Source of the DNA: Naegleria gruberi
Taxonomy: Eukaryota
Direction: 5' to 3' (one strand)
Length of the DNA: 64,000 nucleotides
Assembly: GCA_000004985.1 (NCBI GenBank)
Contig: GG738903.1
Positions within the stretch are counted from its first letter, which is position 1. The number at the start of each line of letters is the position of its first letter. Below, piece after piece: positions 511 to 39,730 of this stretch. A program made the translations under genes and the position numbers. The notes under the pieces are model-generated. The model searched no databases. It worked only from the letters and a program-made list of their open reading frames with translations, and had not been told where the DNA came from.

Positions 511-3390
511 TTATTTAAATATTTGTACACGATGATTGTGATAATCTACTACAACGAGATGACCTTCACTTGTGATTGAAACTCCATTAGGTCCATCGAA
601 TTGTCCATCTTCAGAACCATAACATCCAAATTGTTTGATAATTACACCCTCTCTCAAGTTCCAAATTTGAATTCTATTGTTTGCATAATCGCAAATGGCT
701 GCAAAATTGAGACCAATATTTTTCTTCAAACAACAAATACCAGTTGGGTCACATTCAGAATTTTCTTGTTTCTTGACAGAGAATTTTCTAACAAAGGTAC
801 CATCCAATGTAAAAACTTGGACTCTACAATTGTATCTATCAGTGATTACCAAATTACCATCAATGTCAATATCCAAACTGTTAGGTCCATAGAAATAACC
901 TCCTTCCATTTCTGGATTAGTACCATTAGTTCCAAAAGATTTGAGGAATGAGCCATACTTGTCAAACATTTGAATTCTGTGATTATGATGGTCACATACA
1001 ATAATTTTACCAGGTATTTGAGACTTGGTCTCTGAAACAATAATACCAGTTGGATAACTGAAATGACCATACTCTGCTCCCTTTGAACCAAACTTTCCAA
1101 CCTCAGTTCCAGACTTATCAAAGGCATACACACAATGATCATCACTAGTAACAAGGATTACACCCTCCTTGGCATCAAAAGTGACACCGTATGGTTTAGG
1201 GACTGAGAACTTTCTCAAAAACTTTCCTTGCTTGTCGAATATTTGAACACGATTGTTCTCATTATCACAAATTATGATATTATCACTCGGATCTATGGCG
1301 ATATCGGTTGGGCTGGAAAATTGACCGTCTTCTGTTCCTTTTCCACCAAAACCTAAAACGAATTTACCCTCAATTTTACATTTGATTTCTTGGGTAGGTA
1401 TTACAGGAGTGTTTGGACTACTGTGAACGGATGGAGAGCTTGTACAGCTTGAGGATGATACATTACTATTAGCATTGGATGAAGGAGCATTCTTTGGACC
1501 AATGGCACCAAGTTTGTCTATTGATTCCATGAGTTCTTTCATCGAATCAAAATTTACACAAACATCCAAAGTATCAGACAAGTAACTTCTATCAATCTTT
1601 CTTAAATTTTCTTGGAATTGTTGAACAAGTACAGGAATGAGTAAACTCTTCTTGGTCTTGGATTGAATAAATTCAGCCAAGTCCATCTTGGAAAGATTTT
1701 CCATAAAACCGTCTGTCAAAAACTTAATTTGAGATAATTGTTGCATTCCACTGTTCAAAATCTTTTCACAAATTTCATCTTCACAACAAATTTTCCACTT
1801 TTCTGTCAATTCCTTTCTCTTTTGAGCCAACCTCTTTTCCAAGATATCAAAATTTTCATTGATCGACTTGACGCCATCTTCATAAGTGTGAGATATTGTT
1901 CCCTTGTCACGAGCTAATTTTTCCATTTTTTCTGAAATGTTTTGTTGCATTTGGAAAATTTGGTTTTTAAGCTCTTGTTTTTCTTTTTGATAAACTTCTT
2001 CAACTAGGTCACAGTCATGTCCCTTGTGCTTTGAAATGGCACAGATAGCACAAATCAATTCATCTCCACAAGTATGACACCAAGTGTTCAACTTTTGGTC
2101 TTTGTGGGTTTCACAACAATCAGTCAATGGTCTTAAATTATGGTGGTTAGTACTGACACTTGTTGGGGAAGTAACAGTTTTGTCCACATTTGATGATACT
2201 GATGATGAATTAGAAACAGTGCCACTAGTATTAGAAACAGTGCTACTAACAGACAAGGAAGCAGACAAAGTAGAAGCAATGGATGAAATTGCCGAACCGA
2301 TCGAATTGGCGAATCCTGATGATGTAGTCGGAGTGGAAGCTACACTTCCAGTTGGTGTTGAAGTGTTGCTACTCATTGATACTGTAGCTACTGATGGTTT
2401 GTTTGTTGTTGTTGCACTTGTATTGGTAACAGGGATAAGACCAACAGGTGTTCCGTTTGAGAATTTTCTTTTTGATTGTGGAGATCCAGGTGTAGCTTGG
2501 ACAGATGAATTATTGGCTGTGGTTGGAGAACCTTGTGGTTGTGGCTCCTTCTTTGGGATGTGAAGTCGAGGAGAGGTGTTAGATGGACTTTGGTGTTGTT
2601 GTTGCTGCTGTTGTTGTTCCATAATTTGGTGCATGGCTGATCCGAGCATAATAGGAGAGGATGAAAGAAGGGCAGCTGCACTAATATTCGAAGTTGAAGT
2701 TCCATGAACTGGAGTCATGGATGATGGAGTACTGGTAGAGTTGATTCCTTGTGATTGAACTGAAGATGGTAGCGTCTTGATATTAATTGGTGTCAAGTTG
2801 AGAATATCACTCTCCTTGCTGGATGGACTCATCATGATATTATTATTATTCATTGTTATTCCTTTTGATGGACTTCCAATAATTGCAACTCCACTATTGA
2901 AATTGTTAATTGGAGTATTATTTGATGATTGTGTTGTTATTGTTGAAGAGGATGATGAAGATGGAGAGTTTCTTGTTGGTGTTGCACTTGAAGGTGATTG
3001 ATATTGTTGAGTGGGAGAACGAACGCTTCCATTGGTTGGAGTGGTTGTTGGAGTTGAGTGATCAATCACTGTTGGTGAATTATTGGTAGGACTCTTCATA
3101 TTATGTGCTGGAGGTGGACTAGATGAAAACAGATGAAGCGCCTGAGGTCTTCTTTCATCCAAAATACATTCTTCACTCTCATCGACTTGTTTTACATTAT
3201 CAATAATAACTTCTTCTAACATTGGAGATTGTGGTTCAATATCTATTGATCTATTGTTGGAGGAGGAGGTAGAAGAACTGTGGGTATGATGTTGAAAATC
3301 ATCAGAATCATCAAAGTGAAACAATTCTTCTTCTACAATAGTTTCCGAATATCCTGTATGTTGTTGAAAATCATCAGCCTGATCAGACAT
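511..3390 (-). CDS. B-box / coiled-coil / NHL-repeat protein (TRIM-NHL-like, no RING visible)
   Basis: 959-codon ORF. B-box-like zinc finger CHTCGDELICAICAISKHKGHDC. Long predicted coiled-coil region in the middle. C-terminal NHL repeats with repeated motifs, e.g. DGQFSSPTDIAIDPSDNIIICDNENNRVQIF, GHFSYPTGIIV, HNHRIQMFDKYG, NNRIQIWN. N-terminal Ser/Thr/Asn-rich low-complexity region. Domain calls are from motif recognition, no search was run. Confidence 0.8.
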   Translation of the reverse strand: MSDQADDFQQHTGYSETIVEEELFHFDDSDDFQHHTHSSSTSSSNNRSIDIEPQSPMLEEVIIDNVKQVDESEECILDERRPQALHLFSSSPPPAHNMKSPTNNSPTVIDHSTPTTTPTNGSVRSPTQQYQSPSSATPTRNSPSSSSSSTITTQSSNNTPINNFNSGVAIIGSPSKGITMNNNNIMMSPSSKESDILNLTPINIKTLPSSVQSQGINSTSTPSSMTPVHGTSTSNISAAALLSSSPIMLGSAMHQIMEQQQQQQQHQSPSNTSPRLHIPKKEPQPQGSPTTANNSSVQATPGSPQSKRKFSNGTPVGLIPVTNTSATTTNKPSVATVSMSSNTSTPTGSVASTPTTSSGFANSIGSAISSIASTLSASLSVSSTVSNTSGTVSNSSSVSSNVDKTVTSPTSVSTNHHNLRPLTDCCETHKDQKLNTWCHTCGDELICAICAISKHKGHDCDLVEEVYQKEKQELKNQIFQMQQNISEKMEKLARDKGTISHTYEDGVKSINENFDILEKRLAQKRKELTEKWKICCEDEICEKILNSGMQQLSQIKFLTDGFMENLSKMDLAEFIQSKTKKSLLIPVLVQQFQENLRKIDRSYLSDTLDVCVNFDSMKELMESIDKLGAIGPKNAPSSNANSNVSSSSCTSSPSVHSSPNTPVIPTQEIKCKIEGKFVLGFGGKGTEDGQFSSPTDIAIDPSDNIIICDNENNRVQIFDKQGKFLRKFSVPKPYGVTFDAKEGVILVTSDDHCVYAFDKSGTEVGKFGSKGAEYGHFSYPTGIIVSETKSQIPGKIIVCDHHNHRIQMFDKYGSFLKSFGTNGTNPEMEGGYFYGPNSLDIDIDGNLVITDRYNCRVQVFTLDGTFVRKFSVKKQENSECDPTGICCLKKNIGLNFAAICDYANNRIQIWNLREGVIIKQFGCYGSEDGQFDGPNGVSITSEGHLVVVDYHNHRVQIFK

Positions 3391-5169: not shown

Positions 5170-6051
5170 TTAAAGAGAGTAAACTTCGTAATCTAGAGTG
5201 GTAAATTCACGAGTTGATCCAGTCAAGTAATCCTTTCCCAAATTTGAATAAGTGAATGGATTAGTGAAACTTTTCTTGGTACCTCTAGCAATGAAAATAT
5301 CATGTCCACCTCCAAAAGTTGGATGATCAACAGATCTATGATAAACTGAATAATTGACATATGCAGAATGTGGTCCATCTTGAATCAATTTCTTGAATCT
5401 TTCATCTCTCTTTGGTCCAATTAAACTAAATAAGAAAGCTTTGGAATCTGGGAAGAAATCCAACATTGCTGAACTCCAACTCACTGAAGTATAACCTCCA
5501 AAGATAGCTCCTGAGCTTGCCTTAATAATTGTTACAGTTGGTCCTTGATTATCACATTTTGAATGGAAAGATCTGGCTCTGAATCCATCCTTAGATGCAT
5601 TATAAAGTAATTTCATTGGTCTAGTTTTAACATCTTTCAACAATTCATCAATAAATCTCTTAGATTGATTTGCAGTTAAAAAAGTTGATTTTGACAAATC
5701 TCCAATTAATCCCAAATCCACCTTTGATTCCGTTTTCCTCTTACTTGTTCTCTTTTTAAGAATTTTCAGTTTAACGCTCTTTGATTTTGTTGGGTTGCCA
5801 TCCTTATTAGCATTCAAGGTAACCCGAGGAGCATTTCTATTCCTAACAACAACTGCTTGTTTACGCATCACCTTCTTACCATGTTGGTTTTGTTGTTGTT
5901 TTGATCGTTTTATTAATCTTGCTGTTGCCTTAATAGAAGCCTTGGTAGTTCCCTTAGCTTTCTTCCCCTCAACAGCAGAAACAACAACAACACTCAACAC
6001 GACCAACAGCAACAACAATAACAAGAAGAAAACGCCTCTCCTCATCATCAT
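5170..6051 (-). CDS. TLDc-domain protein with N-terminal signal anchor
   Basis: 293 codons. N-terminus MMMRRGVFFLLLLLLLVVLSVVVVSA is hydrophobic (signal peptide or type II anchor). A basic linker follows. The C-terminal 160 residues match the TLDc pattern: LLYNASKDGF..FHSKCDNQGPTVTIIK..GAIFGGYTSVSW...AFLFSL...FGGGHDIFI...EVYSL. Confidence 0.6.
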   Translation of the reverse strand: MMMRRGVFFLLLLLLLVVLSVVVVSAVEGKKAKGTTKASIKATARLIKRSKQQQNQHGKKVMRKQAVVVRNRNAPRVTLNANKDGNPTKSKSVKLKILKKRTSKRKTESKVDLGLIGDLSKSTFLTANQSKRFIDELLKDVKTRPMKLLYNASKDGFRARSFHSKCDNQGPTVTIIKASSGAIFGGYTSVSWSSAMLDFFPDSKAFLFSLIGPKRDERFKKLIQDGPHSAYVNYSVYHRSVDHPTFGGGHDIFIARGTKKSFTNPFTYSNLGKDYLTGSTREFTTLDYEVYSL

Positions 6052-6308
6052 ATCGTTTTGCTTTAATTTTTTAATGATGAACTGTAAAGGTGAATGGTAG
6101 CGGACAGTAAAGGAAGAATTTTGTCAATGCACTCTATGGCCAGAGTTGAGATAATAGAATTGAGAGAAAAAGAACAAGTATATGAATTTGTTTAAGGAGC
6201 CTGATTCTCATAGTGATTTTAATTTTATGATTAAAAAACATGTTGTGATGATGAACGCGGGAGATTAGTACGATTTCCTCAAAATTAAAGAAAATTGATG
6301 TAAAAAAA

Positions 6309-9300
6309 ATGTCGGCATCAGCAGATTATGATTCAAAGAAGAGAAAAATTTTGGAGGCTTCTGATTCAGTTGATCAAATTGTTTCGGATGAAAATGATAG
6401 ACTCATTGATCAAGTTTCTGATGCGCTTCATCGATTGACTCTACAAAAACGAGCTGATTCAATGGTAATGGCATTGGTCGATGATAAAAGACAAGTTTCA
6501 TCATCATCATCTTCCCGTGATGAAAGGCTTGATTCTCTCCAGCAAATGCAACAAGAAAAAGTTGTTGTGTTGAAAGTTGGTGGTAAGTTCTATCAACTTC
6601 ATCTTTATTCGAATTTAATATATTTTGATCATCCATAGGAAAATTCTTTAACACAACAATGAGAACTTTGGTGGGAGAAAGAGGAAGAAAATTAGAAAAT
6701 TTGGATAATGACGAAGAAATGAAGGAAGGTGAAGAAGAAAAACAAGATGAAGACGAAAACGATGAAAAAGAAGAAACAAAAGATGATGATTGTGAATATG
6801 TCACAGCACAACCGAACTTGTTCAAAGTCATGTTTGATTCTGGAATTGGCATTGAGAGAGATGAAGCAAACAAGTCTGCAATTTCATTCCCTGATAGAAA
6901 TCCAGACTATTTCGAATATGTTTTAGAGCACTTGAGACAGGGAGGAAAAGTTAAATCGCTTGGTGTTGAGAAATTGAATGCCAATCAGTTGGAGAACATT
7001 TTGGAAGAGTCCAATTATTTTGCAACTGAAAAGTTATCAGAGTACATTCTATTCTTACTCGAAAAGTATCACAAGTTACATGGGTCGAATTTGGGCAAGT
7101 TTGCTGAAACAGAAGATCAGAATTCAGAATCTAAATCATTAATAGTACCTCAAAAGGTTGAAATTCCAATTGAACAAGTTAGACAAAGACTCCTTCTAGT
7201 TGAAGATTCCATCAATGAATCAAAGAAGGTGGCCAAAGAATTATCACTCAAATTAGTTAGCAAGTACCAGAACTTCATCTTGGGAAATGATTTAGAGACT
7301 GACCTGTCTGTTAAAATTGATGTTTCTGGTCAAATTTTCACAATTCCTTTTGCCATTTTGCAACAGCATGAAACTTTCCTCATTTCCAAGTACATTTTAG
7401 CACCAAATTTTTGTTTGAATGAGAATGGGTGCATCTTTATTGATAGAAGTCCAAAGTTATTCGCCCTTATTCATTCATATATGATTAGTGGCAAATTTAC
7501 TCATTTCCCAAAAAACCTCTCAAGGGAAAAGAAACATCAATTGAAGCAAGAAGCAGAATTTTATGGTGTCATCTCTATTATTAATGATTATCTTGATCCA
7601 TTACGTTACCCAGTTGAAAAGATTGGCCAAGACAATATTGAATTGAAAGAAAAGGAAGACAAATTGAGAGAAATATATGCAAAGGAAAGAGAATCACCAT
7701 TATTGAACGATCCATATCTATTACTATCACCTCTCTTCCAAAATTTAGAAGAAATTAATGATCAAGAAAAGTACAGAATTGATTTTGGAGAATGTCCTAA
7801 ATTATTAGATTTATCTGACAAAACCAGATATTCCAGACAAGTTTCTAAACCTCAACTTTTAACTAATTTGGGCGCTTTCAAATTGAATTGGCATAGATTC
7901 ACGCAAGGAGCACTCAAAGGTCTGGATTGGAACAATGTAATTGCTGCAGGTGAGTTCAATTAATTCTTCGATTTTAATTTATAATATTTAAATTAGGTGG
8001 TGGTATTCTTGCTTGTTGTTTGAAACCTGACACTTCCGAAAATATCAGTACCGTTGGTCTTAATTTACCACGCAATGGTTCTGAAAGAAAAAAGTCTTCC
8101 AAACCAATGATGGATGATAATGAAGAGAATGATGTTTCAGATTTTGGTTATTGGAAAAGATTGAAAAAAGAATCATCAGCAGAGGAAGGTGAGTCATTAA
8201 CACAAACAAAGCTTGATAAGGATAGATATCTTAGGGGGGACACGACTATATACAGGTTTCTTAGTTACACAACAGACGATAAGAGAACAAATTTGAGAAA
8301 TCTTGAGAAAATATATACACCCATCATTTCTAAAACAACAGCTGTTCCTGTGGTGGATGAAAAGAAAGAAGACGCTTTTTTCATTCCAGAGGCAAATATT
8401 CCAAGCTCATTTAAAAATTCAGATATTGATCTCTTTCTGTATGCTCTAAGTGAAGAACAAGCAGAAGAAAAAATCAATCACATTTATCAAACCATTAAGA
8501 AAAATATGAGATCTAGATTAATTACAAAATATTCTGAAAAAACTAATAGTCAAGATTTCTTAAGCGGAGAAATGGTCAGGGCTTATGAGGATGGTGTTAT
8601 CAGAACTGAAGAATGTACGGTTAATGATGATGTTCTGGTTGTTAGAACTAAATTTGCTGTTACATTCTATTGTTACAAACTCAGACCAATTCAAGTTGTT
8701 TTGAGAATTTACAAATCACCTGCTGAAGTTTTGTTAGGTTTTGACATTGATTGTGCTACTATGGGGTATGATGGATATCAAGTTTGGTCAAGTGAAAGAG
8801 CAAGAAGAGCTTTAATGTATCATACTAATCTTGTTGATGTTGATAGACAATCTACAACTTATGAATATAGATTATACAAGTACAGTAAGAGAGGTTTCTC
8901 TGTTTCAATTCCAGGTTATGATACTGCTAAAGTTCAAAATCAATTGTTGCAATATCCACGAAGATATTCATTTAATTCTACTGAGTATTTATTGCATGGC
9001 TTGGCAAGACTTATTGCTTTCGATAACTCTTGTCGCTCTAGATACCCACAACGTGTTTTAGGCGCGTATGACAGAGATAACCAAGCACAGTCAATTGAGG
9101 AAAATTCAGTACTTGTACTTTCTGGTGAGCTAAATGTCAAGTCAGATTATCTTGATCTGAACATCATCAAATCACACAAATACCCTCCAAGTATTATCTT
9201 TGAAACTTTGGAAAGAGCTCGCAAGGTTGTTGCCAAGATTAATTTAGAAAAAGAAGATACCTTTACGCGCTCACTTGATACGTTTGTTTTAGACAGCAGA

Positions 9301-9981
9301 TTGAAAGAAAATACATCTAACATTATAAGAAAGAGAAATCCAGATTGGAAACCACACTTTATTTATACTTTAAATGATATTGATACCATAATTAATAATG
9401 AAATATTTGATTCCAGACTCTCCAAGAAGATTGAGTTTCTTACAGTTGATCCAGGAACTCAAAAAATTGGTTCTTTCCATCCTAAGGATATTAACTTTTA
9501 TAGAGATGCCTATCAACCAGTTCCATCCACTAATTTACCTGTTTTAGGTGATGAATATTCCACAAATACATACATTTGGTACAAGTCAATGACTTCACCT
9601 CCAGAACAAGTAATTAGCAAAACGGACAAAAGATATCAAAAATTACCTGTTAGAACTGCTCCTTTTTATTCACTTACCAATGAAGTAGTATGGTTCGAAG
9701 TGTTGACACCAGAAGAAAGCAACACAATAGAGACTGAATACAGAAAGTACCTTATTTACAAGAGTCCTGAAAGATTTGCACTTTCAGAATGTGAAATAGT
9801 TGATTTTTCATTGAATAGACTTTTCTGTGTGATACTACTCATCCCTTCCAACCAAATACCTTTAAATTATTATTCCGAAAAGAATTTTCTGATTACAATG
9901 GCTATCATGATGATGAGGGTACCAATAAGGTTGATATTCTGGCTTTCAATGCACACTATTAAATATCAACATTTTATTTAA
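6309..9981 (+). CDS. Tandem BTB/POZ (KCTD/T1-type) domain protein, three exons, with a large conserved C-terminal region of unknown function
   Basis: The ORF-track entries 6309-6638, 6659-7963 and 8020-9981 join in frame through two short introns. Intron 1 is about 6583-6638: GTAAGT donor placed right after VLKVGG in the middle of a BTB/T1 motif, CATAG acceptor, and the motif continues as KFFNTTMRTLVGERG. Intron 2 is about 7950-7996: GTGAGT donor and TTAG acceptor, phase 1 at both junctions. The downstream reading frame is open from the acceptor and has no ATG of its own. A first T1 domain carries an acidic insert (SFPDRNPDYFEYVLEHLRQGG). A second T1 domain is DVSGQIFTIPFAILQQHETFL. The C-terminal ~650 residues contain the motif VLLGFDIDCATMGYDG. 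Confidence 0.7.
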
Positions 9982-9994
9982 TCTAATATATTAT

Positions 9995-10519
9995 TTAGAA
10001 AGAATGCATCAACTTTTCAGCTTCAGTATCAGAACTTGGAAGATAACCACAATTTCCTTCAGTCATCAAAACTGGAACATTGCATTCCAAAGTGACATCC
10101 AATTCAGTTCCATTAACCTTATAGGAATAACCTTCAAAATCATTGGCTTCCTTGTTTGGATTGTGAACAATCTTCAAAGTCATCTTGGTTAATCCAAGGA
10201 AAGCTTCCTTACAATCAGGATCCTTCATAAATTCTTCTGGAATGTCAGAACACAATCTGGCAATTCTTCTTGACTTCATCAAGAATTTGACAACACCAGT
10301 GACGGCTGGAGCATCTTCAGTGTCCCATGAACCAAACTTGTACTTGAGATCACCTGGGAGTGAGGTAACACTATCCCAATCCAATAAGAAGACCATTTGA
10401 GGATTGAGCTTTTGCAAATCACTATTCCAACCCTTAACTTCAGCATACAATTCACGAGCTAATTTCTTGAATGGAAGAGAACCAGACTTTGGGAGGAATT
10501 GGGCTTCGTAGTCAGACAT
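9995..10519 (-). CDS. Hypothetical small acidic protein (174 aa), strong high-expression codon bias
   Basis: Clean ATG start. No low complexity. Codon choice dominated by aag, ttc, gtc, cca, ggt, gaa, which are the preferred codons in highly expressed dictyostelid genes. No recognisable family motif. Confidence 0.6.
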   Translation of the reverse strand: MSDYEAQFLPKSGSLPFKKLARELYAEVKGWNSDLQKLNPQMVFLLDWDSVTSLPGDLKYKFGSWDTEDAPAVTGVVKFLMKSRRIARLCSDIPEEFMKDPDCKEAFLGLTKMTLKIVHNPNKEANDFEGYSYKVNGTELDVTLECNVPVLMTEGNCGYLPSSDTEAEKLMHSF

Positions 10520-11144
10520 GTTGATTTGTTGTTTTGTTGTTTTTTGTTTGTTTTTGTTGTGGAAAAATAGTTCTGTGAGAGTTGCGTGCTATTTAAGGCC
10601 TGTAAAATTGTAAGAAATCTTGCGCCTGTACTTTGAACTGTATCGACACAAATCATTTTACGGTAGGGGCGGAATTGGATTGGTCGTTAAAATCAGCCAG
10701 GGAAATCTCTATACTTGTCCTTATTCCTTCCTTAATAGCGAACGATACATCTTGTTATCTCTGGAAATTGGGAAGGAATATGCTTCGAATCGTGAAATTT
10801 ACACTTCATCAACGAGGAATAACACAATTTTATCAGTTGAATCATATTACAGTTGTTGTTGATGTAACATTACGTAAAATCAATAGTAAGGCCTTACTAA
10901 AAGCACAACGTGTTTTAGTGCATGCTTAATTACAAGTTTATTAATAATATTTGGTGGTGATAATATTCAACCTTAATGATAAGGTTAAATATGAAGATAT
11001 GAATTATCATCAACAACAAGAACATGAAATCAAGATTCAAAGAAATTGACTTCCAATTCTTGTTGGATCATTACCAAACAAACTTGTTTGCATAATGAAA
11101 ATGCAATCATGTTAAATTTCTTTAGGTTTATAAATTTTAAAAAA

Positions 11145-11978
11145 ATGACTGAAAATCATCAGGTGGAAATGGATGACTTGTTTTCATCGTCATCATCCGA
11201 TGATGAAGAATACAACAATACTACACTATCATCAACAACAAGAACAAAAAATCAAAAAGAAGAAAAGTCTGAAGATGAAGAAGAATTGGATTACATGGAC
11301 GATCAATTTATCAAATCCCTTGAATCCGTTGATCACGAAAGGCTTCCAAATATTCATCCATCAGAAGCCTTTCCGTCCAAGAAACTCTCCTTCCGAAATG
11401 TTCCTCTCGAATTGATTCAAGCCTACAACACGGCTCGAGAGGAGAAACAATTTAAAAAGGCTCATCATTTGAAGAAACAAATTCGTGATTATAACATCAA
11501 GGAGGAAATGTTGGAAAAGGCAAAATTGTCTCTTTCAAAGAGTTTGATTGTACAGGAGGAGGAAAAGGAAGCTGGAAAACAATCGGTTGGACTCAAATTG
11601 TTGAAAAGAATGGGATTTGAGCAAGGATCTGGATTGGGAAAGAATAATCAGGGAAGTGTTGCTCCAATTAGTATTGATAAACAGTTGGATTACTTGATGG
11701 AGAGTATGGATTCAAAGATGAAGAAACCAATTATTGGACTTGATGAAGTGCAAGTAATGAAGAGAGACGAGATTGAGAAATTTAAAAGTGAAATGGAACA
11801 AAAGCAAGAAAAAAAAGCTCCCCTCACTGAGGAGGAATTTACCAAAATTATGAGGGAAAAACATAAGGAACAAAAGAAGAAACGTAAAATTAGAATGGCT
11901 TTGACTGAGGATGCTGCTGAGGCAGTTGCTAAAAAGGTAAAACAAGATGAAGAATGGGAAGAGTTTGAGGATTTTTAA
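11145..11978 (+). CDS. G-patch domain protein with acidic N-terminus and Lys/Glu-rich C-terminus
   Basis: AAAAATG start at 11145; the track ORF begins earlier at a non-ATG codon. G-patch motif GLKLLKRMGFEQGSGLGKNNQGSVAPISI. Confidence 0.75.
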   Translation: MTENHQVEMDDLFSSSSSDDEEYNNTTLSSTTRTKNQKEEKSEDEEELDYMDDQFIKSLESVDHERLPNIHPSEAFPSKKLSFRNVPLELIQAYNTAREEKQFKKAHHLKKQIRDYNIKEEMLEKAKLSLSKSLIVQEEEKEAGKQSVGLKLLKRMGFEQGSGLGKNNQGSVAPISIDKQLDYLMESMDSKMKKPIIGLDEVQVMKRDEIEKFKSEMEQKQEKKAPLTEEEFTKIMREKHKEQKKKRKIRMALTEDAAEAVAKKVKQDEEWEEFEDF

Positions 11979-14591: not shown

Positions 14592-15800
14592 TTATAATTG
14601 AGAGATGGCTGATTCTTGAGGTTTTGATAAGGAAAATATGCTAATTTTGTCCCAAAGTGGAATTTCAGTGAAAATTTCTGATTGGTCAACTAGGATTGGT
14701 ATTCCACTAGTGTTTGATTTGGTTTCACTATTCACATATTCTCTAAAGTCTTCCTTTCTAATAATCTGATCTGAATTCAACGCAGATTGAGAAATGTCAT
14801 CTCGTTTCTGAATAATTTCGACACTTGTCACAGATTGTGAGCTAGCGCTGTTAAATTCAATCAATACAAAGTCCAAAGGACCAAATGAAAATGTTACAAT
14901 AATGCAAAATAAGAGGAGGGATATTTTGTGGATGAATAAACAAATAGGATAAAGTGGAATATAGTAAGCGAAAGCAAATCCTCCAAAACTCATTGAAATT
15001 AAGTTGAGAAGAGCCATGTAGAGTTGACCAAATGTTAGTAGGAGCATTTTACGACATGATTTTCTTCTCTGATCGGTTACTGGAAACTTTTGATTGAGAA
15101 TTAGCTTTCTAATTAGTAAAACAACAATTACCATATTTAGTATGGGAAAGAAGATGGTTGCCAAACAAATGATTGAAATGTAAAATCCGAAAATAACCCT
15201 TGAAATGTTGGACATGATGGTAAAACCTTCAGAATCTATCCATTTCCTTTCGGTGTCATAATATTTGAAAAGACTATAGGTTATTACTAATGGTATTACA
15301 ATTACAATAATCAAGTTGACTATTACAATAAGTGTAATACTTGTTATTTTGATAAAATCTCTCAGCCTCTGATTACCCTTATTCATTCTCATCCACTCAT
15401 GTGATTTGTTAAAATACAATCCATACAAAATTTTTGTAACAACACCAAGGCAATTGGTGCACATTACAATTGACAAGAAAAAAAGCGACTGTTCCAATGA
15501 CGCGCTAATTACTATAAGAATTTCTCCAAAATCTACAAGAATTGAAGTACCAGTCACTATCCCCACTATCTGGAACACTTCTTCCAAAGCAAAAACCAAT
15601 AAAACCATTGAATATAGCAATTTCTTATTGTAAACCATTTTTTTGTAATTCATAATGAAAATGACAAACATAAATACAGAGCAACTGGAAAATATGATGA
15701 ATCCGATACCATTCAATGGTATTCCAATGCTTGATGTCACTATATCTTCCATAGGAATCGTTGAATTGCTGCTCAGAGTTGCAAAAACGTCATTTGCCAT
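14592..15800 (-). CDS. Lineage-specific 7TM receptor-like protein, array member 1
   Basis: 402 codons. Seven predicted hydrophobic helices with the N-terminus outside (N-glyco sequon NST). Family motifs are shared with 17028-18128, 18277-19394 and 21810-23207: WMR after TM3, TDQ[RK]RK.CRK in loop 3, FGQ in TM6, and SFGPLD after TM7. Confidence 0.75.
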   Translation of the reverse strand: MANDVFATLSSNSTIPMEDIVTSSIGIPLNGIGFIIFSSCSVFMFVIFIMNYKKMVYNKKLLYSMVLLVFALEEVFQIVGIVTGTSILVDFGEILIVISASLEQSLFFLSIVMCTNCLGVVTKILYGLYFNKSHEWMRMNKGNQRLRDFIKITSITLIVIVNLIIVIVIPLVITYSLFKYYDTERKWIDSEGFTIMSNISRVIFGFYISIICLATIFFPILNMVIVVLLIRKLILNQKFPVTDQRRKSCRKMLLLTFGQLYMALLNLISMSFGGFAFAYYIPLYPICLFIHKISLLLFCIIVTFSFGPLDFVLIEFNSASSQSVTSVEIIQKRDDISQSALNSDQIIRKEDFREYVNSETKSNTSGIPILVDQSEIFTEIPLWDKISIFSLSKPQESAISQL

Positions 15801-17027: not shown

Positions 17028-18128
17028 TTACACTTTATTTGGGTCAATTGTTTCGTTTGTTTCGTCTTTTTCCACCACAATTTCTGAAACTACCTTAGTA
17101 GAAACATTTGCTTTCACATCCCTTTCCTCAATCTCAATCTTATTCATTGATTTCCTTTTTACAATATTTGCCAATTGATGTCCAAATTCAGAAACATTAT
17201 CCAGTGGTCCAAAAGAAAAGTTTACAACAATACAAAAAATGAAAATTGATGATCTGTGAATTAAAATTGAAATTACACTGAGTGGCATGACAGCACTAGC
17301 AACTCCGGCAGTAATGACACCCACTGCATTCATCATAGACATTATAACTTGACCAAAGTTCAGAATTAGCAAGTTTCGGCAGACTTTCCTTTTTTGGTCG
17401 GTTATGACACTTTGATTTTGACCAAGTAGCTTTCTAATCAACAAGACGGTGATTGTAAAGTTGAGAATTGACAAATAAAAGAATGCTGCAGATATTACAC
17501 TTCCAAGAGTTGGATGAAATATTTTTGTAAACTGTTGTATAGTAAGAACTTGACTCAAGCTCAGAATTTTCCTTCCCGGATCAATAAAAGTCAATAATGA
17601 TGAGATAAACGCATAGGGCATGCTCAAAATCAACAGCAAATTGAAAAATGCAACAATTCCAATCGTTGAAATAAGCACCACTTTCTTACCAATCGAATGA
17701 AGTTTCGAATTTCTCATCCAAGTTTGATTTTCATTAAAATACACTGCATAAAGTACTTTCGTTATAACAGCCTGACAATCCAAACATAATGTCAAGCTCA
17801 ATAAATATCCAGCAAACTCAAATCCAAGAAAAGTTCCGGTCAACCCAAGTGGACCAACAAGCAGAGCTGAAGTATACCCAATTAAACCACATAATTGATA
17901 AATCTGCTGATTTAAACAGGTAAATATCAAGAGTAGGTACATTAATCTCTTGTTTTTCACCATTTTCTTCCATTTATAGATTAGTAGAATCGTCATGGAA
18001 AGTAGAAGAAACAAGAAGAATAAAGCTCCGAGAGAATTGAGAGTAATGATGGAAATAAAGGTGCCAAGATAATCTGATTTGGCTGTAGGTGAGGCAGATG
18101 TTGTAGAGTTGGTCAATGTCGAGTTCAT
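17028..18128 (-). CDS. Lineage-specific 7TM receptor-like protein, array member 2
   Basis: 366 codons, 7 TM. Same family motifs: WMRNSK, TDQKRKVCRNLLILNFGQ, NFSFGPLDNVSEFGHQLANIVKRK. Confidence 0.75.
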   Translation of the reverse strand: MNSTLTNSTTSASPTAKSDYLGTFISIITLNSLGALFFLFLLLSMTILLIYKWKKMVKNKRLMYLLLIFTCLNQQIYQLCGLIGYTSALLVGPLGLTGTFLGFEFAGYLLSLTLCLDCQAVITKVLYAVYFNENQTWMRNSKLHSIGKKVVLISTIGIVAFFNLLLILSMPYAFISSLLTFIDPGRKILSLSQVLTIQQFTKIFHPTLGSVISAAFFYLSILNFTITVLLIRKLLGQNQSVITDQKRKVCRNLLILNFGQVIMSMMNAVGVITAGVASAVMPLSVISILIHRSSIFIFCIVVNFSFGPLDNVSEFGHQLANIVKRKSMNKIEIEERDVKANVSTKVVSEIVVEKDETNETIDPNKV

Positions 18129-18276: not shown

Positions 18277-19394
18277 TTAAACTTTATTTTCTGATTCCTT
18301 ATTCGAAAGCTCTGCCTCCTTATCCTTAATATGAACATCAGTCTTAATAGAAAGAGATCTCCTCTTCACAACATTTGCCAACTGCTCACCCAATTCTGAA
18401 ACATCATCCAATGGTCCAAAAGAAAAGTTTACAAAAATACAAAAAAGGAAAATCGAAATTCTATGAGAAGCCAATCCAATCACAAATAAAACAAGAGGAA
18501 TTACAGTAGCCACTCCCATTATTATAATTCCAATGATATTGAGCAGTGCCATTAACACTTGTCCAATGCTTAAAATTATTAACTTTCTGCAACATTTCCT
18601 TTTTTGGTCAGTTATGATACTTTGACAAAGATAGAGTTTTCTGATTAGTGAAATTGAGAGAGAAAGATTAAGCACGCAAAAATATAGGAAGGAAAGTGAA
18701 ATGAGAGCTCCCAAAACTGGATGGAAAATTCCAGTAAATTGGCGAAGTGAGCTACTTTGAGATGGAGTGAGAATATCAACTTTGACAATTATGGAAAATA
18801 TAAAGGCGAAGGGGATGCTTAGTACTAATTGTAAATTAAAGATTGTTACTATGAAATACTTGTAAACTTTACAAAATTTCTAAATATGGAATTTTCTTTT
18901 GAATTTCTCATCCATGTTTGTGATTCATTAAAATATACTCCAAAAAGAACTTTAGTAATAATCGCCTGACAATTCAATAATAATGTCAAGCTCAATAAAT
19001 ATCCAGCAAACTCAAATCCAAGAAAAGTTCCATTCAACTGAGGCGGACCTTTCAAGAATGAAGTTAAATATCCAACCAATCCACAAGTTTGATAAACAAA
19101 CTGATTCAAACATGTAATTATCAACGCTATCGACATGATTCTCTTATTTTTAACCATTCCTTTCCATTGAACTATCAAGAGAATGGTCATGAAAAGAACA
19201 AGAATGAAAAAGAGAAAACTTCCCACAGAATTCAAAGTAATGAGAGATATTACTTGGGCATTGTTAGTGGATGAAACTGTAGAGTTTTCTGTTGTGTTGG
19301 TAATGTTTGATATAATCGTCGAGTTGAATATCATCTTGTTTTTTTTTATATTTGAGTTTCGTATCTCTTTTGGATTCAATTGACCTATATACAA
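18277..19394 (-). pseudogene. 7TM receptor-like paralogue (array member 3) split by a 1-nt frameshift
   Basis: The N-terminal ORF 18849-19394 carries TM1-3 plus the WMRNSK motif. The C-terminal ORF 18277-18714 carries TDQKRKCCRK, FGQ and SFGPLD. The TM4 region between them reads through in a second frame (KYFIVTIFNLQLVLSIPFAF). One missing base near 18849-18852 (TTTCA-TAG versus expected TTTCAATAG) restores a continuous protein collinear with the paralogues. This is either a pseudogene or a draft-sequence error. Confidence 0.6.
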
Positions 19395-21809: not shown

Positions 21810-23207
21810 TTAATCATTGAGAGGAATATCAACAAAGATATCTTCATATTGTATATTATCGATTTTCGTCGTAGTAGTTTGATGATGATCAGTAGCAGTA
21901 CTCATAGTGGTATTACTGTCATTACTTTTCTTACTGTCATTACAATTGGTTGGAGCACGCAACTGATCAGTTGCAATCGCCTCCTGAGGCCCAAAGGAGC
22001 TAGTAATGTTGAAGGGTGAGTAAATGGGCTGCTTGTTTGTTGCTGTATACTTGATCATCATCATGGAAGATATTTCGCTGGCTTTTCTAAATGCCTTTGA
22101 ATCAATATTGAAAGAGTTTGAAGTTTTTTGATTGGTGAGTTGAATTTCACTGGTTTGACATGAGGATTGAGTATTATCCCCATGTGGCTTCTTCTTACCT
22201 TCCAATTTTAATTCATAATGAAAGTAATCCATAGGTCCAAAACTGAAACTCACACAAATGGCAAATAACAGAAACACAAATCTATGAATGACACCAGTCA
22301 ATATGAACAAGTATGGATACCATATACCAATAGCTCCCAAAATAATTGAGATTGAATTAATAATTGCCATGTAGAATTGACCAAATGTTAAGAGTACCAA
22401 CTTTTTACATGCATTTCTGCGAGGGATTGGGACTGGCCTGTTTTGGAGAAGGTATCTTGAGAGTAGAAGAACCAAAGTTAAATTTAACACTCCTGTAATG
22501 ATGGCACATCCAGAGTTTACAAGACCAACAATGGCCACAGAAATAATTGACCAAATGCCAAGAATACTTCCAACTCGTGTATTTCCTCCATCCATATAAT
22601 ATACCATTGAACAGATCAGAGTGAATGGAACGAGAATAATGAATGCAATAGTCCAAATTAATGTCATTCCAATTGTGTAATATTTTGTAAATATTCTAAA
22701 CTTTTCATTGAATGAATAGCTTTCTGCTCCCTTCCTCATCCATGAATGAGATTGATGAAAGTAAATTCCATACAATACTTTTGAAACCATTGCTTGAAAA
22801 TAGGTACACATTACAACAGTTGACACGAGTCCACAATAATAAATAACGAAAAATAATTGACTCAAAAATTCCTGAATATGAGTCAGTGCTCCAACATCGT
22901 GAGCTATTCCAACTCCCTGTGAGAGAATTTGCAAGATGGCTGTAAATATTAAGGAAATGTAAAAGAATCTCTTGAAGGGAATCATTTCCTTCCATCGTTT
23001 GATGAGGAGAGTGGTCATTATAATGGTCAGTATCAGATAACTCAGTATTCCAATTCCATGAGTAGTAACAGAAATGTAGTATCGTTCTATTGCAGAAGTA
23101 AAAGTTGATGATGAAATATTGTATTGATGGAAAACTATTCCTGGATTCAATGAGCCATGCTGATGCTGGTCAACAATAGAAACAGTCATCTCACGATTAT
23201 TATTCAT
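21810..23207 (-). CDS. Lineage-specific 7TM receptor-like protein, array member 4, with long C-terminal tail
   Basis: 465 codons, 7 TM. Motifs WMRKGAESYSF, RRNACKKLVLLTFGQFYMAI, SFSFGPMDYF. Confidence 0.75.
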   Translation of the reverse strand: MNNNREMTVSIVDQHQHGSLNPGIVFHQYNISSSTFTSAIERYYISVTTHGIGILSYLILTIIMTTLLIKRWKEMIPFKRFFYISLIFTAILQILSQGVGIAHDVGALTHIQEFLSQLFFVIYYCGLVSTVVMCTYFQAMVSKVLYGIYFHQSHSWMRKGAESYSFNEKFRIFTKYYTIGMTLIWTIAFIILVPFTLICSMVYYMDGGNTRVGSILGIWSIISVAIVGLVNSGCAIITGVLNLTLVLLLSRYLLQNRPVPIPRRNACKKLVLLTFGQFYMAIINSISIILGAIGIWYPYLFILTGVIHRFVFLLFAICVSFSFGPMDYFHYELKLEGKKKPHGDNTQSSCQTSEIQLTNQKTSNSFNIDSKAFRKASEISSMMMIKYTATNKQPIYSPFNITSSFGPQEAIATDQLRAPTNCNDSKKSNDSNTTMSTATDHHQTTTTKIDNIQYEDIFVDIPLND

Positions 23208-35235: not shown

Positions 35236-37439
35236 ATGAACAGCAAGAGTATCATCTCATTGTTGCTCGTTGCCGTTTTGGCCATCGTTTTCATGTCAAG
35301 TGGAATTGATGCCAGAAAGAGCAAGGCAAAGAGAGCTGCTGAAGCAACACTGAAACGTTGCCAAGCATTAGGTGACCCACACTACAAAACTTTCAATGGA
35401 AAATTCGATTTCTACGGAGTTGGTGATTACGTTTTTGCTCAAACCAATGACGGTAATCTTATTATTCACACTAGAACTGGAAAGTGGAACAAGGCTTCAG
35501 TCAATACCGCTGTTGGTATGTAATTTAATTATTATTCCAATATCATGATTTTAACAATAATTATTCACATAATACATTTCATGATGCAATTTATTTTCAA
35601 CTGATGACATTTGACATGTGGAAATTATTACTTCATATTTTTTCATGATGCATCCAATTCTTCTTTTAAAACTATTTATCAAAAACAACAGCTGTTAAAC
35701 TTGAAGGATCAAGAATTTTCGAATATGATGTTGTTTCTGATAAATTCTTCTTGAACAAGGTCCCAACCAAGATTAACGTTGGTGAAACCGTCTCTTTGGG
35801 AACCAAATCATCAGTTAAGAGAGCTTCACAAACTTCATTCGTTGTCACTGCATCAAATGGTGCCATCTTGTCTGCCTCTTATTCCAGAAGCCCAGCTTAT
35901 TTGAAGACTGGATCAATTGGTCACATTAACTTGATTCTCGATTCACCAAAGTCTGTTGACTACACTGAAGGATCATTGTGTTCAAGAGCAAAGGTTAACG
36001 CCAGAACCCGATTGCCACGTGCTATTGGTATTTTGCATAACCACAAGATTAGAAAATTCAGAAAGGTTCCATCAACCAAGGATTTCCCAGCTGATAAGGT
36101 CAAGAAGGCCAGATCTGTCTGTAGAAAGGCTGGTATCAAGTTGAAGAAGCATCCAAATGCTTTCAAGGCTTGTGTTAAGGATCAACTTTTGACTGGTAAG
36201 AAATTGGGTAAGAAGATTGCCAAGAAGATCGCCAAGGTTGAAAAACTTGAAGATAAGAAGAAGAAGAAACTCGTCAAGAAGATTATCAAGAAGGCCAAGA
36301 AGGCTGCCAAGAAGAGACTTGTCAAGAAGAAGAAGTTGTTGAAGAAGTTGAAGAAATTGTTAAAGAAGAAGTCTCGTGCTGCTAAGAAGGCTGTTAGAAA
36401 ATTGAAGAGAAAGCTCAGAAAGTTGAAGAGAAAGCCAAAGAAGGTCTCCACCAAGACTAAGAAGGCTAAGAGAGCTTCAAGAAAATTGAAGAGAAAGCTC
36501 AGAAAGTTGAGAAGATGTGCTAAGAAGGCTAAATCTTTGAAGAAGAGAAAGGCTTGCAGAAAGCTCTTGAAGAGAATTAGAAAGTTGAGAAAGCTCAGAA
36601 AGTTGAGAAGAAGAGGTGCCAGAAGAGGTGCTAGAAGACCAAGACGTGTTATCATCATCAAGAAATGCAAGAGATCTCCAAGAAGAAGAGGTGTCAGAAG
36701 ACCAAAGAGAAGAACTTCTAGAAAGATCAAGAAGGCCCAAAAGAAGAGAGCTAAGAAACTCGTTAGAAAGCTCAGAAAGATCAAGAAGGCTCAAAAGAAG
36801 AGAGTTAAGAAGGCTAAGAGAGCTGCTAGAAAGGCTAGACGTGCTGCTAGAAAGTTGAAGAGAAAGCTCAGAAGATTGGCTAGAAGACTCAAGAAGGCCA
36901 AGTCTTTTAAGGCTGCCAGACGTGCTAGACGTGCTTTGAGACTTGTTAAGAGACGTGCTAGACGTGCTGCTAAGCGTGCTTGTAAGCTCCGTAAGAGAGC
37001 CAAGAAGGTCAAGAAGGCTCTTAAGAGAAAGGTCAAGAAGGCCAAGAGAGCTGCCAGAAAGGCTAGAAAGGCTAGAAGAAACAGAAGACTCTCCAAGAAG
37101 GTTAAGAAGATCGTCAAGAGAACTTCTAGAGTTGTTGTCAAGAAGACAACTGCTAGAAAGATCAGAAAGTTGTTGAGAAAGGTCTTGAAGTTGAAGAAGA
37201 GATTGGGTAGAAAGTTCTGTCCAAAGAAGCACTTGCCAAGAAAGCTCAGATTGCTCTTGAAGAAATTGAAGGTCAAGATTGTTGCTTGTAAGAGAGGTAG
37301 AAGAGTTTCTAAGAGAAGAATCAACAAGAGAAAGCTCAGAAAACTCAGAAAGGTTAGAAAGGTCAGAAGAAACAGAAGAGGTGTTACTGTCATTGGTAAG
37401 AGACTTGCCAGACAATTGGTTAAGGTTTCTAGATGTTAA
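35236..37439 (+). CDS. Secreted von Willebrand D-domain protein with giant polycationic Lys/Arg/Leu heptad tail
   Basis: Exon 1 35236-35515: signal peptide MNSKSIISLLLVAVLAIVFMSSGIDA, then CQALGDPHYKTFNGKFDFYGVGDYVF (VWD hallmark including a GDPH Asp-Pro site). Intron 35516-35691 (GTATGT...AACAG), phase 1. Exon 2 35692-37439 continues the VWD domain, then about 420 residues (from ~36186) of KKLLKKLKKLLKKK / RKLKRKLRKLRR-type sequence with 8 spaced Cys. Codons aag and aga dominate. Confidence 0.7.
36186..37439 (+). repeat. Low-complexity coding repeat (AAG/AGA/TTG codon iterations) encoding the polycationic tail
   Basis: Imperfect reiteration of KLRK, KAKKA and RRAARKA units. It generates spurious long Leu/Ser/Phe ORFs on the opposite strand. 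Confidence 0.8.
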
Positions 37440-37568
37440 TTTAACTCTTAATAATATAATTTAATTTATTCAAAATTTCTCATATGTAAATATTGTTCTG
37501 TTAGCATGTAGATTGGGAGGTAGATGTCGAAATGTTGAATTTTATTTTTATTAAAAATTAAAAAAAAA

Positions 37569-39730
37569 ATGAAGAAGGTTCTTAGTCCATCATCTCTTCA
37601 ACTCAATTTGAAAATTGCTTCGGGAGCTATTGCTTCATCATCAAAACATGCAACACAAATTGTAAAATATCTTGCTCAACAACAGCTGGCATCTGTTAAT
37701 TCTTCCTATCATCAATCTAGTCGAGTTTCAACAAGCAAAAAAAAGGATAACGATGATGATGAATTTAAAAAGAACATGAACAACATATTTGGAGCATTGG
37801 GAGGCTCGGAACAAGTGAAAGGACATTTGAATGATATATTCAATGCTTTTTTAAAACCTGGAGCAAATATTCATACTTCAGGTGCTTCGAATTCTTCATC
37901 TTCATCATCTAAAAAGAGTGAACAACAAACAACGGAAAATGATGAAGCAAACAAGCCAAAGAATACCTTCATTCAAGATGAAGAACGATTAAACGAGAAT
38001 TTCCACAAGATTGTCTTTGAAGCCTATCACATGCAACGTAAACAATTTGAAAACAAATTGACACCACAAGAAATTGTGAATTGTCTTGATAAACATATTG
38101 TTGGACAAAAGGATGCAAAGAAGGCTGTCAGTGTAGCCCTTCGTAATAGATATAGAAGAAAGATTTTGATTGATTGGGCAAAGAGTGAAAAAACTTTACT
38201 TGATCCTTCTGAGATAATTCCAAAGAATATTTTAATGATTGGATCAACAGGTTGTGGTAAAACTGAAATTGCAAGAAGATTGGCAAAATTAGTTTCTGCT
38301 CCATTCTTGAAGGTTTGTTTAATTCAATGTTCTCTATTAATTTATTATTATTATTTTATTATTATTATTATTATTGGAATGTTCTTAATGAAAAAATTAT
38401 ATAGGTGGAAGCAACTAAATATACAGAACTTGGATATCATGGAAGAGATGTGGATACTATTGCTAGAGACTTGGTGGATGTTTCTATCAATGTTTTGAGA
38501 AATAATATTACTGATCTTTTCAAACAATTTTTAAATAGACCACCATCATCAACACCATCCGAACAAGAAGAAGGAACTTTGGAAGAACCAGACTTGTTTG
38601 GATCCTATCTTCAACAATTAATAGAGTATAGAATCATTCACTTGATGATTGGAACAAAAAATATAGCAAATTTGAGAAATGGTACCATTAAGGATTATTT
38701 GAACATGTTAAGAAATGGAGAATTGGACGATAGAAAAATTGAAGTGAGCATGCCTGAAAAGAAATCATCATTAGGATTATCTCAATTCAGTGACGTGTTT
38801 GATGCTGTCAAGGGTTCATTTGGATCATCTCTTGATAATTCCAAATTTTCAATGCCAGATGTTGCCAACTTGTCAGATCATCAAACACCACTTGACTCAA
38901 TGTTAGGTCAATTAAATCCACAAAAATATAAAAAGGTTGAAATGACAATTAAGGAAGCCAAAGTGAGATTAGTAGAGTTGGAAATGGATAAATTTTTGAA
39001 TAGCCCATTATTCATTGAAGAGGCAAGAAAGATTGCTGAAAGTGATGGAATTGTCTTTATTGATGAAATTGACAAGATTTGTGGAAGTCCTGAAAAGAAG
39101 GCCGTTCAAGGAGATGCCTCAGGAGAGGGAGTGCAAAGGGATTTATTACCACTGTTAGAGGGTTGCACAATTAATACTAAATATGGTCCAGTCAAGACGG
39201 ATCATGTTTTGTTTATTGCTAGTGGTGCTTTCCATCAACAAAAGCCATCTGATTTAATGTCTGAATTCCAAGGTAGATTGCCAGTAAGAATCATGTTAAC
39301 TGCACTTAATACGCCTGAAGAGCTCTATCAAGTATTAACAATGCCAGAATTCAACCTTGTGAGACAAAATATTTCCCTTATGAATAGTGAGGGTATTTCT
39401 TTGGTCTTTAGTGACGCAGCTAATAGAGAAATTGCCAATTTCAGTGCCTTGTGTAATGCAGGAAATGATAATCTTGGTGCAAGAAGATTAATTGGAATTA
39501 TTGAAAAGGTAATTGATGAAATGTCTTTTATTATTCCAGACTTAGTGAGAATGGAGGATACTGAAAAAGCTGCACAAGAATTGAGAAATATTGGATTTAA
39601 CACTTTTGAAATATCAAGACAAGATAATAGAAATGCTATTACAATCACAATAACAGCCGAAGATGTGCAAAAGAAACTGGAAAAGAGCTCACAATTTAAA
39701 AAGTTGGATGTGAAGAAGTTTATGATTTAA
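37569..39730 (+). CDS. hslU: HslU-type AAA+ ATPase (ATP-dependent protease HslVU ATPase subunit), probable mitochondrial
   Basis: Exon 1 37569-38312, intron 38313-38404 (GTTTGT...TATATAG, phase 0), exon 2 38405-39730. The junction restores the canonical [23 protein letters not shown] sequence. Other motifs: [25 protein letters not shown], Walker [18 protein letters not shown], sensor/arginine-finger region [11 protein letters not shown], an I-domain insert, and an N-terminal presequence-like [24 protein letters not shown]. Confidence 0.85.

Follow-up and report, generated by a model that had tools for sequence, protein, structure and literature searches.

The window analysed here is a 64,000-nt stretch of the Naegleria gruberi genome (contig GG738903.1) with a GC content of 34.6% and a uniform composition, the region of the gene under study included. 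A mechanical listing of open reading frames (ORFs) returned three on the same strand, at 6309-6638, 6659-7963 and 8020-9981 (+). A preliminary description of these letters had proposed that they form a single spliced gene in which two BTB domains are joined to a large C-terminal module that could not be assigned. Our sequence analysis confirmed the first part of that proposal, the three ORFs being predicted as one spliced three-exon nuclear gene that runs from 6309 to about 9981 (+) and codes for a product of about 1,185 amino acids. The second part was revised, as the C-terminal module can be placed, by its homologues and by profile comparison, in an already catalogued family named after the phage anti-defence protein Gad2.

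Exon 1 (6309-6582, +) codes for residues 1-91 plus one base and contains an N-terminal low-complexity region with a KKRK stretch and the start of the first BTB_2 domain. Its ATG at 6309 is preceded by an A-run, and the closest in-frame stop upstream lies at 6252-6254. Exon 2 (6639-7949, +; residues 92-528) contributes the remainder of BTB domain 1, a coiled linker, BTB domain 2 and the first portion of the Gad2-type module, and exon 3 (7997-9981, +), in its frame 0 reading, ends with a stop at 9979-9981, the placement of this 3' end being uncertain. The two introns, of 56 nt (6583-6638, +; GTAAGT...CATAG) and 47 nt (7950-7996, +; GTGAGT...ATTAG), are both canonical GT-AG introns and both in phase 1, and the spliced coding sequence amounts to 3570 nt, a multiple of three. 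The frame is uninterrupted for about 3.4 kb over the three exons, with all catalytic and family-invariant residues intact. Short GT-AG introns appear to be normal for this genome, since the HslU gene of the same window also carries one, of 92 nt, at 38313-38404.

The junctions 6582/6639 and 7949/7997 placed in the preliminary description proved exact to the base, as judged from the GT-AG sites, the phase-1 frame and the continuity with homologues. Excision of intron 1 restores VLKVGGKFFNTTMRTL, and the product across the junction, VVVLKVGG|KFFNTTMRTL, is the BTB_2 core motif, with which KCTD9 (5bxh) aligns as LNVGGRYFTTTRSTL; the intron does therefore split a T1/KCTD motif, as had been noticed. 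The product of the second junction reads LDWNNVIAAG|GGILACC. Two details of the earlier account had to be corrected. The frame of the third exon does not open exactly at the acceptor, as had been stated; it opens at 7978, 19 nt upstream, and that of exon 2 opens at 6629, 10 nt before its own acceptor. Nor is the third ORF devoid of in-frame ATG codons: the earliest is found at 8107 (codon 37), which is 3' of the G-loop that is invariant in the family and therefore cannot be the natural start of this ORF.

Comparison with homologues supports the same gene model. P0001 (1109 aa), the top homologue, matches the C-terminal part at E 2.4e-70 with only 33% identity, and it likewise carries two BTB_2 domains followed by the module, all coded by a single unbroken ORF on a 39.9-kb JGI contig (L002). 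In P0001, in P0009 and in the Acrasis kona proteins P0007 and P0008, the motifs V.VGG..F.TT..T and DW.N..(A/V)AGG.(V/I)LA read without a break through the sites of both junctions. With these homologues intronless or collinear across both sites, the joining of the three ORFs into one gene is supported at each junction. On L002 (JGI 3300062347, Ga0606064_0187; 6001-11392), a further gene was observed 3' of P0001, at 9368-11392, coding for 674 aa with no Pfam family recorded. Its product equals in length the module-only homologue P0002 (674 aa), and Gad2-type tandem paralogues may thus adjoin each other on this contig.

Positions 6200-8870 of the window have a counterpart of 98% identity in L001, a 2.7-kb contig from an ENA metagenome. 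The indels between the two within exons measure 9, 9, 3 and 3 nt, all multiples of three, the one in exon 1 being of 9 nt; those just 5' of the ATG, of 10 and 1 nt, are not multiples of three, and those in the introns (a 12-nt insertion in intron 1 and a 3-nt one in intron 2) are non-discriminating. Codon differences amount to 11 synonymous and 16 non-synonymous substitutions, a pattern that indicates only mild constraint. Exon 2 was called on L001 by a prokaryotic gene caller as a separate 437-aa protein, P0112, which ends inside the intron. The locus illustrates how prokaryote-style ORF calling fragments a spliced gene, as was done in this public metagenome annotation.

A Pfam scan of the spliced protein matched BTB_2 (PF02214) over two stretches with 68.9 bits against a cut-off of 21.4 (E 5.1e-19), in agreement with the two T1/KCTD-type BTB domains described earlier. 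In BTB domain 1 (6561-7069, +; residues 85-235), intron 1 and an acidic insert of 42 aa (residues 104-145; 6674-6799) break the continuity, and KCTD9 aligns to this domain in two pieces, at residues 87-106 and 158-229. The core strand motif (V/I)x(L/I)NVGGxxFxTxxxTL is found there as VVLKVGGKFFNTTMRTL, which is formed only once intron 1 is removed, and in BTB domain 2 (7301-7594, +; residues 313-410, with the best Pfam stretch at 316-403) as VKIDVSGQIFTIPFAIL. Among PDB sequences, the second domain matches 4yy8, a 'Kelch protein' (K13), at E 4.5e-6, and KCTD5. The window protein has the BTB_2 fold and motifs in common with KCTD5 and KCTD9, to which its similarity reaches only E 1e-3 to 4e-5, and differs from them in the tandem arrangement of its BTB_2 domains, in the acidic insert that splits the first and in its enzyme-like C-terminal partner. 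As both N-terminal domains show the BTB_2 fold and motifs, oligomerisation is expected. Many KCTD proteins are adaptors of Cullin-3 (Cul3), and BTB_2 domains are also found in proteins that do not bind Cul3, such as the T1 domains of Kv channels.

The C-terminal module begins with a helical part and a motif-A G-loop (7595-8019, +), the loop reading VIAAGGGILACC at residues 525-536 and spanning intron 2. Between the G-loop and the DxD strand lies a variable, largely disordered insert of 132 aa (8020-8415, +; residues 537-668), which differs in length among homologues and whose predicted local distance difference test score (pLDDT) is below 50 over much of its length; in phage Gad2 only about 12 residues separate the two motifs. 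The predicted nucleotidyltransferase core (8416-8919, +; residues 669-836) carries SDIDLFLY with D671 (8422-8424) and D673 (8428-8430), IQVVLRIYKSPAEV with the invariant Q761, GFDIDCATMGYDG with F777, D778 (8743-8745), D780, D787 and G788, and also DRQSTTYEYRLYKYSKRGF. It is followed by a region specific to the eukaryotic family (8920-9678, +; residues 837-1089), in which GLARL (863-867) and GSFHP..NFY.DAY (1020-1034) can be recognized; this region has conserved columns (G456, L457, L460 and Y506) and mixed pLDDT, and falls outside the match to phage Gad2. An alignment of 80 sequences with the window protein as its first row, which served as the eukaryotic profile, revealed A528, G529, D671, D673, Q761, D778/D780 and D787/G788 to be invariant or near-invariant, likewise the motif R820-L-Y-K-Y824...R827-G-F. 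Some 30 further positions besides the G-loop and DxD are invariant or near-invariant across these homologues. The suggestion that the module looks enzymatic is supported. The metal-binding motif A (hGG...DxD) is intact, and its G-loop (A528, G529) and DxD (D671, D673) argue for a likely active nucleotidyltransferase, and with these active-site residues conserved a purely non-catalytic recognition role appears unlikely.

A homologue search with residues ~495-1140 as query returned 123 proteins at E<=1e-3. Nearly all of the best 120 of these 123 carry the precomputed family PF26128, named 'Gad2' in the contig index. The Pfam library used for our own scan predates PF26128, and BTB_2 alone was returned from it for the spliced protein. 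Gad2, for Gabija anti-defence protein 2, is a 400-aa protein of SPbeta-like Bacillus phages and, by AlphaFold2 prediction, a nucleotidyltransferase (bioRxiv 10.1101/2023.05.01.538930). With sequences taken from supplementary table 10 of the same study, the eukaryotic profile aligned in hhalign to the experimentally verified Gad2 of B. laterosporus with 91.5% probability (E 8.5e-7) and, over 160 columns, to a profile of 10 Gad2 sequences with 96.8% (E 2.1e-10). Motifs paired in the alignment are (I/V)AGG, DxD(L/V)(F/Y), IQ..L..Y.SP.E(I/V), FD..C..YD and R(L/V).KY..(K/R)G(F/Y), so that the Gad2 invariants A30 G31 G32, D45 D47, F106 D107, R152 and Y156 have as counterparts in the window protein A528 G529 G530, D671 D673, F777 D778 and R820...Y824. 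PHROGs 4400 and 1614, the latter annotated 'nucleotidyltransferase', were matched by the verified Gad2 and by the eukaryotic homologue P0041. A PHROGs scan of the window module itself gave no match, nor did a PADLOC scan, nor a tblastn search of the window nucleotidyltransferase core and of P0041 against 50,697 phage genomes; the link to Gad2 is therefore visible only at the profile level. By these comparisons the module is assigned to the catalogued Gad2 family and is not a novel domain, and the gene is one ordinary member of this family, not a new kind of system.

Structure models were examined for exon 3 alone, which is without strand 1 and the G-loop, and for the complete module-only homologue P0002. 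The exon 3 model (608 aa) has a mean pLDDT of 67, with core residues 140-345 above 90, and that of P0002 (674 aa) a mean of 75, with values above 90 over the N-terminal helical part and the G-loop region. The best structural matches were the A-adding enzyme 3wfo (scores 8.5 / 10.1), the bacterial poly(A) polymerase 3aql (7.4 / 9.1), the CCA-adding enzymes 3h37 (7.2 / 8.9) and 9kma (6.8 / 8.0) and TENT5B 6jyj (6.4 / 7.2); enzymes resembling cGAS and DncV reached only about 3.5. These models show a predicted Pol-beta-superfamily nucleotidyltransferase fold, closest to the head and neck of class-II tRNA CCA-adding and bacterial poly(A)-polymerising enzymes, and the superfamily signature hG(G/S)...Dh(D/E)h occurs on the correct fold. 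Searches of PDB sequences, whether the query was the single sequence or the eukaryotic or phage family profile, gave nothing meaningful and no solved structure. An aspartate of GFDID had been considered as a 'third catalytic carboxylate'; this candidate was dropped, as the study of related pandoravirus proteins discussed below places the equivalent DFD at motif B.

The family is very large. A profile search against 1.84 billion cluster representatives returned 8,049 proteins at E<=1e-3, of which 2,308 at E<=1e-30, a family size of about 8,000 that counts clusters at 50% identity. Members are found in Heterolobosea, Amoebozoa, fungi and giant viruses, those named among the matches listed including Acrasis kona, Balamuthia, chytrids and many ascomycetes and basidiomycetes. 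Many of the top profile matches are 1,700-1,900 aa long, with an N-terminal module and ankyrin arrays after it. Among the best 120 of the 123 homologues, fusion partners include ankyrin repeats, which are common, and the classical BTB-BACK. BTB_2 itself occurs in 11 of the 80 aligned sequences, most family members having no BTB of any kind and carrying the module alone or with ankyrin repeats. Further partners among the matches listed are a PARP catalytic domain (P0011), a PBZ zinc finger (P0100), a kinase (P0104) and a PP2C phosphatase (P0031). A Foldseek comparison with viral models gave 54 matches at E<=1e-3, nearly all from giant viruses of protists; among them are proteins of pithoviruses, Fadolivirus, klosneuviruses and pandoraviruses with ankyrin, VWFA or BTB fusions. 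Domains related to ADP-ribose, namely PARP catalytic (P0011), PBZ (P0100) and WWE (P0004 and P0005), were observed fused to the module in different lineages. Their recurrence is a thin hint of a link to ADP-ribose signalling.

The nucleotidyltransferase domains of phage Gad2 and of the window protein are homologous, with (I/V)AGG, (S/N)D(I/L)D(L/V)(F/Y), IQ..L..Y.SP.E(I/V), FD(F/I)(T/D)..(M)G..D and R(V/L).KY..(K/R)G(F/Y) in common. Gad2, however, is encoded by phages or prophages, stands alone with about 200-480 aa and blocks bacterial Gabija, whereas the window protein, cellular and eukaryotic, is about 1,185 aa long and in addition possesses two BTB domains at its N-terminus, a helical N-terminal extension of 100 aa, the 132-aa insert inside motif A and a eukaryote-specific C-terminal region of about 300 aa. 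To our knowledge, Gabija has not been described in eukaryotes, so that the target of the window protein must differ from that of Gad2; anti-Gabija activity during infection, a property of the phage proteins, is not to be expected of a cellular protein from a eukaryote. Class-II enzymes (3wfo, 3aql, 3h37, 1miv and 9kma) share only 7-14% identity with the window protein, have RRD (motif B), which in the latter appears replaced by FD, and bear tRNA-holding body and tail domains that are absent from the window protein, an unrelated C-terminal region being found in their place. The fusion of a BTB domain with a class-II-like nucleotidyltransferase has already been described in the Pandoravirus 'cluster 7' (e.g. 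A0A2U7UAG2), where DFD replaces RRD and EDxxR is not recognisable, and for which tRNA maturation, as well as an interaction of its classical-type BTB with Cul3, were proposed (bioRxiv 10.1101/2023.12.02.569716). Cluster 7 proteins are viral and have one classical BTB(-BACK)-type domain, in contrast to the two T1/KCTD-type BTB_2 domains of the window protein, whose gene is cellular and has spliceosomal introns. An origin of the gene by insertion of giant-virus DNA was considered and dropped as unsupported, given the spliceosomal introns, the window-like composition and the ordinary cellular neighbours.

The 3' end of the gene is less clear than the rest. A product of about 1190 aa had been proposed, and the frame 0 reading does give 1189 aa, though its last ~50 codons look non-coding: the residues they code for are hydrophobic, and codon-usage log-odds, trained on genes of the same window, fall after position ~9826 to -0.22 per codon in frame 0 and stand at +0.15 per codon in an alternative frame. 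A one-base frame problem is suspected in a T-run at about 9820-9826, in a segment (9820-9960, +) whose alternative tail ends ...LCDTTHPFQPNTFKLLFRKEFSDYNGYHDDEGTNKVDILAFNAHY with a stop at 9958-9960; one added T in the T-run at 9821-9824 would join the two frames. A third intron was sought by enumerating all GT..AG pairs within 9780-9900, and none of them yields a continuous frame. The product thus ends either at 9981 (1189 aa) or at 9960 (1182 aa), and the frame change in the T-run reflects either an error in sequencing the homopolymer or a genuine frameshift, by which the last ~45 residues would be altered. The conserved module terminates well before this run. The preceding C-terminal tail (9679-9822, +; residues 1090-1137) is the site of a WWE domain in some homologues, the Pfam model (PF02825, cut-off 21.1) scoring 29.0 bits in P0004 and 25.2 bits in P0005. 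No WWE was found in the window tail in either frame version, nor in P0001, and the sole stretch that hhalign aligned between the window tails and those of homologues was the GSF(N/H)P..NFY.DAY motif.

Taken together, we consider it reasonably probable, if well short of certain, that the locus is a single spliced gene whose product combines two T1/KCTD-type BTB domains with a Gad2-family nucleotidyltransferase and acts as an oligomeric, active enzyme. In such a protein, the BTB domains would assemble a homo-oligomer and might also dock to a partner such as Cullin-3, and the C-terminal domain would transfer a nucleotidyl group from a nucleoside triphosphate to an acceptor hydroxyl. Our best guess for the acceptor would be an RNA 3' end, because the closest folds are those of CCA-adding and poly(A) enzymes. 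A role in host-virus conflict or stress signalling would seem more fitting than one in housekeeping tRNA maturation, because the family has anti-defence relatives in phages, is abundant in giant viruses, shows lineage-specific expansions in amoebae and fungi and diverges rapidly, and because of the nature of its partner domains.

Several observations weigh against this interpretation of the gene as a spliced, active Gad2-type enzyme. The 132-aa insert between G-loop and DxD is far from the canonical spacing of 9-13 residues. The class-II PolyA_pol head domain gave no Pfam match at E<=1 in the spliced protein, nor at E<=0.01 in nine homologues, and neither RRD (motif B) nor EDxxR was seen in the conserved columns of the 80-sequence alignment. 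The window protein has GFDID, which conforms to a family-specific motif FD(I/F)(D/T), at the position where, according to the placement in the pandoravirus study, the related proteins have DFD instead of RRD; motif B of the class-II enzymes thus appears replaced, and an RNA acceptor would be an analogy only. Both splice junctions are predictions from the sequence, the Gad2 membership of the window protein is drawn from its homologues and from hhalign, and a frame problem affects the 3' end. The fusions related to ADP-ribose occur in only a few homologues, and the window protein is not among them. The mechanism of Gad2 itself was still described as 'yet to be elucidated' in a 2026 review (PMC12904381).

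Among the alternatives, the protein might be a Cul3 substrate adaptor whose BTB domains bind Cul3 and whose Gad2-like domain, catalytically dead, recognises a substrate for ubiquitination. The resemblance of the BTB_2 domains to KCTD5 and KCTD9, members of a group in which Cul3 adaptors are generally known to be frequent, would fit such a role, and the pandoravirus study also proposed a Cul3 interaction for its BTB-nucleotidyltransferases. However, near-invariance of the G-loop, DxD and about 30 other positions across 80 diverse homologues is typical of an active enzyme, most family members carry the module without a BTB, and T1-type BTBs are not all Cul3 binders; we regard this alternative as unlikely. 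It is quite unlikely, too, that the gene codes for a housekeeping tRNA CCA-adding or repair enzyme, or a poly(A) polymerase, in which the BTB domains are incidental. Such an activity is suggested by the best structural matches, which are A-adding, CCA-adding and bacterial poly(A) polymerase enzymes, and by the tRNA maturation proposed for the pandoravirus proteins. Against it stand the failure to match any class-II Pfam family at E<=1, the replacement of RRD by FD, an EDxxR unrecognised in the pandoravirus relatives and identities of 7-14%. The family moreover has multiple copies and evolves fast, and its members are fused to ankyrin, BTB, PARP and VWFA domains, unlike a single-copy essential enzyme.

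The anomalies at the 3' end raise the question of a decaying gene, a pseudogene or an assembly-damaged locus, in which the frame break near 9820-9826 would be real and the function lost. Codon usage does change frame after ~9826 with no intron to explain it, and the 11:16 ratio suggests mild constraint. We nevertheless judge this improbable, as a frame of about 3.4 kb is open, the catalytic residues are intact and the indels relative to L001 preserve the frame; the break touches only the last ~45 residues, past the conserved module, and a T-run is a typical site of sequencing errors. Hardly any credence can be given to the three ORFs as independent genes. The ENA metagenome annotation does have exon 2 as a protein of its own (P0112), but the boundary between ORFs 1 and 2 falls inside the BTB motif, ORF 3, having no ATG before codon 37, would lose the G-loop strand, and the homologues are collinear over both junctions, so that this view is already contradicted by the present data.

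A broader proposal, which we put forward as speculative and rather unlikely, is that eukaryotic Gad2-type enzymes would constitute a conflict or immune family that phages and giant viruses share with eukaryotes, the BTB oligomer of amoebae, possibly coupled to Cullin-3, nucleotidylating an RNA end or a nucleotide-derived signal in the course of viral infection. If this were true, the sporadic fusions with PARP, PBZ and WWE would represent cross-talk with ADP-ribose signalling, the BTB and ankyrin copies of giant viruses would be captured counter-measures, and the eukaryotic enzyme, once solved, could also explain the action of phage Gad2 against Gabija. The only experimentally studied relatives in this very large family are phage anti-defence proteins, and many others occur in giant viruses of amoebae. 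A cellular, oligomerising and apparently catalytically intact representative would be a reasonable entry point to its reaction.

The gene is surrounded by ordinary cellular genes. Upstream are found a B-box/NHL protein, a short-chain dehydrogenase and a TLDc protein, and downstream a 174-aa ORF and a G-patch protein; no paralogue of the studied gene is present within the 64-kb window. An Rfam search over the whole window gave nothing, and a scan for bacterial promoters and terminators, irrelevant to a eukaryote, found fewer sites than in shuffled sequence. The B-box/NHL gene (511-3390, -) codes for a 959-aa TRIM-like protein with an S/T/N/Q-rich N-terminus, a B-box, a coiled coil and an NHL beta-propeller (Pfam NHL, E 1.4e-29). 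The TLDc gene (5170-6051, -), divergent from the studied gene and about 260 bp upstream of it, codes for a 293-aa protein with a hydrophobic, signal-like N-terminus, a basic linker and TLDc (Pfam TLD, E 4.9e-25).

Further along, an array of tandem paralogous multi-pass membrane proteins occupies 14592-15800, 17028-18128, 18277-19394 and 21810-23207 (all -), with motifs such as KVLYG.YFN.S..WMR and FSFGPLD in common. The one member tested, at 14592-15800, had no Pfam match, and the copy at 18277-19394 is broken into two ORFs, probably by an intron. An extremely K/R-rich ORF of 562 aa (35751-37439, +) overlaps an antisense S/L-rich ORF of 312 aa (36477-37415, -), and the strongest skew of the window is located at 36001-38000 (GC skew 0.24, AT skew 0.26). 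The HslU (ClpY) ATPase, of mitochondrial type, is coded at 37569-39730 (+), the conserved motif FLKV|EATKY being split by its intron (GTTTGT...TATAG); identity amounts to 59% with the HslU of Naegleria lovaniensis and 44% with that of Willaertia magna, and an identical 441-aa ORF product, P0121, is present in an ENA metagenome. Two loci code for very large, cysteine-rich surface proteins with EGF-like repeats: one (39750-47882, -) for a product of 2,710 aa that passes through the membrane several times in its C-terminal region, and the other (55584-62524, +) interrupted by a 50-N assembly gap at 60186-60235.

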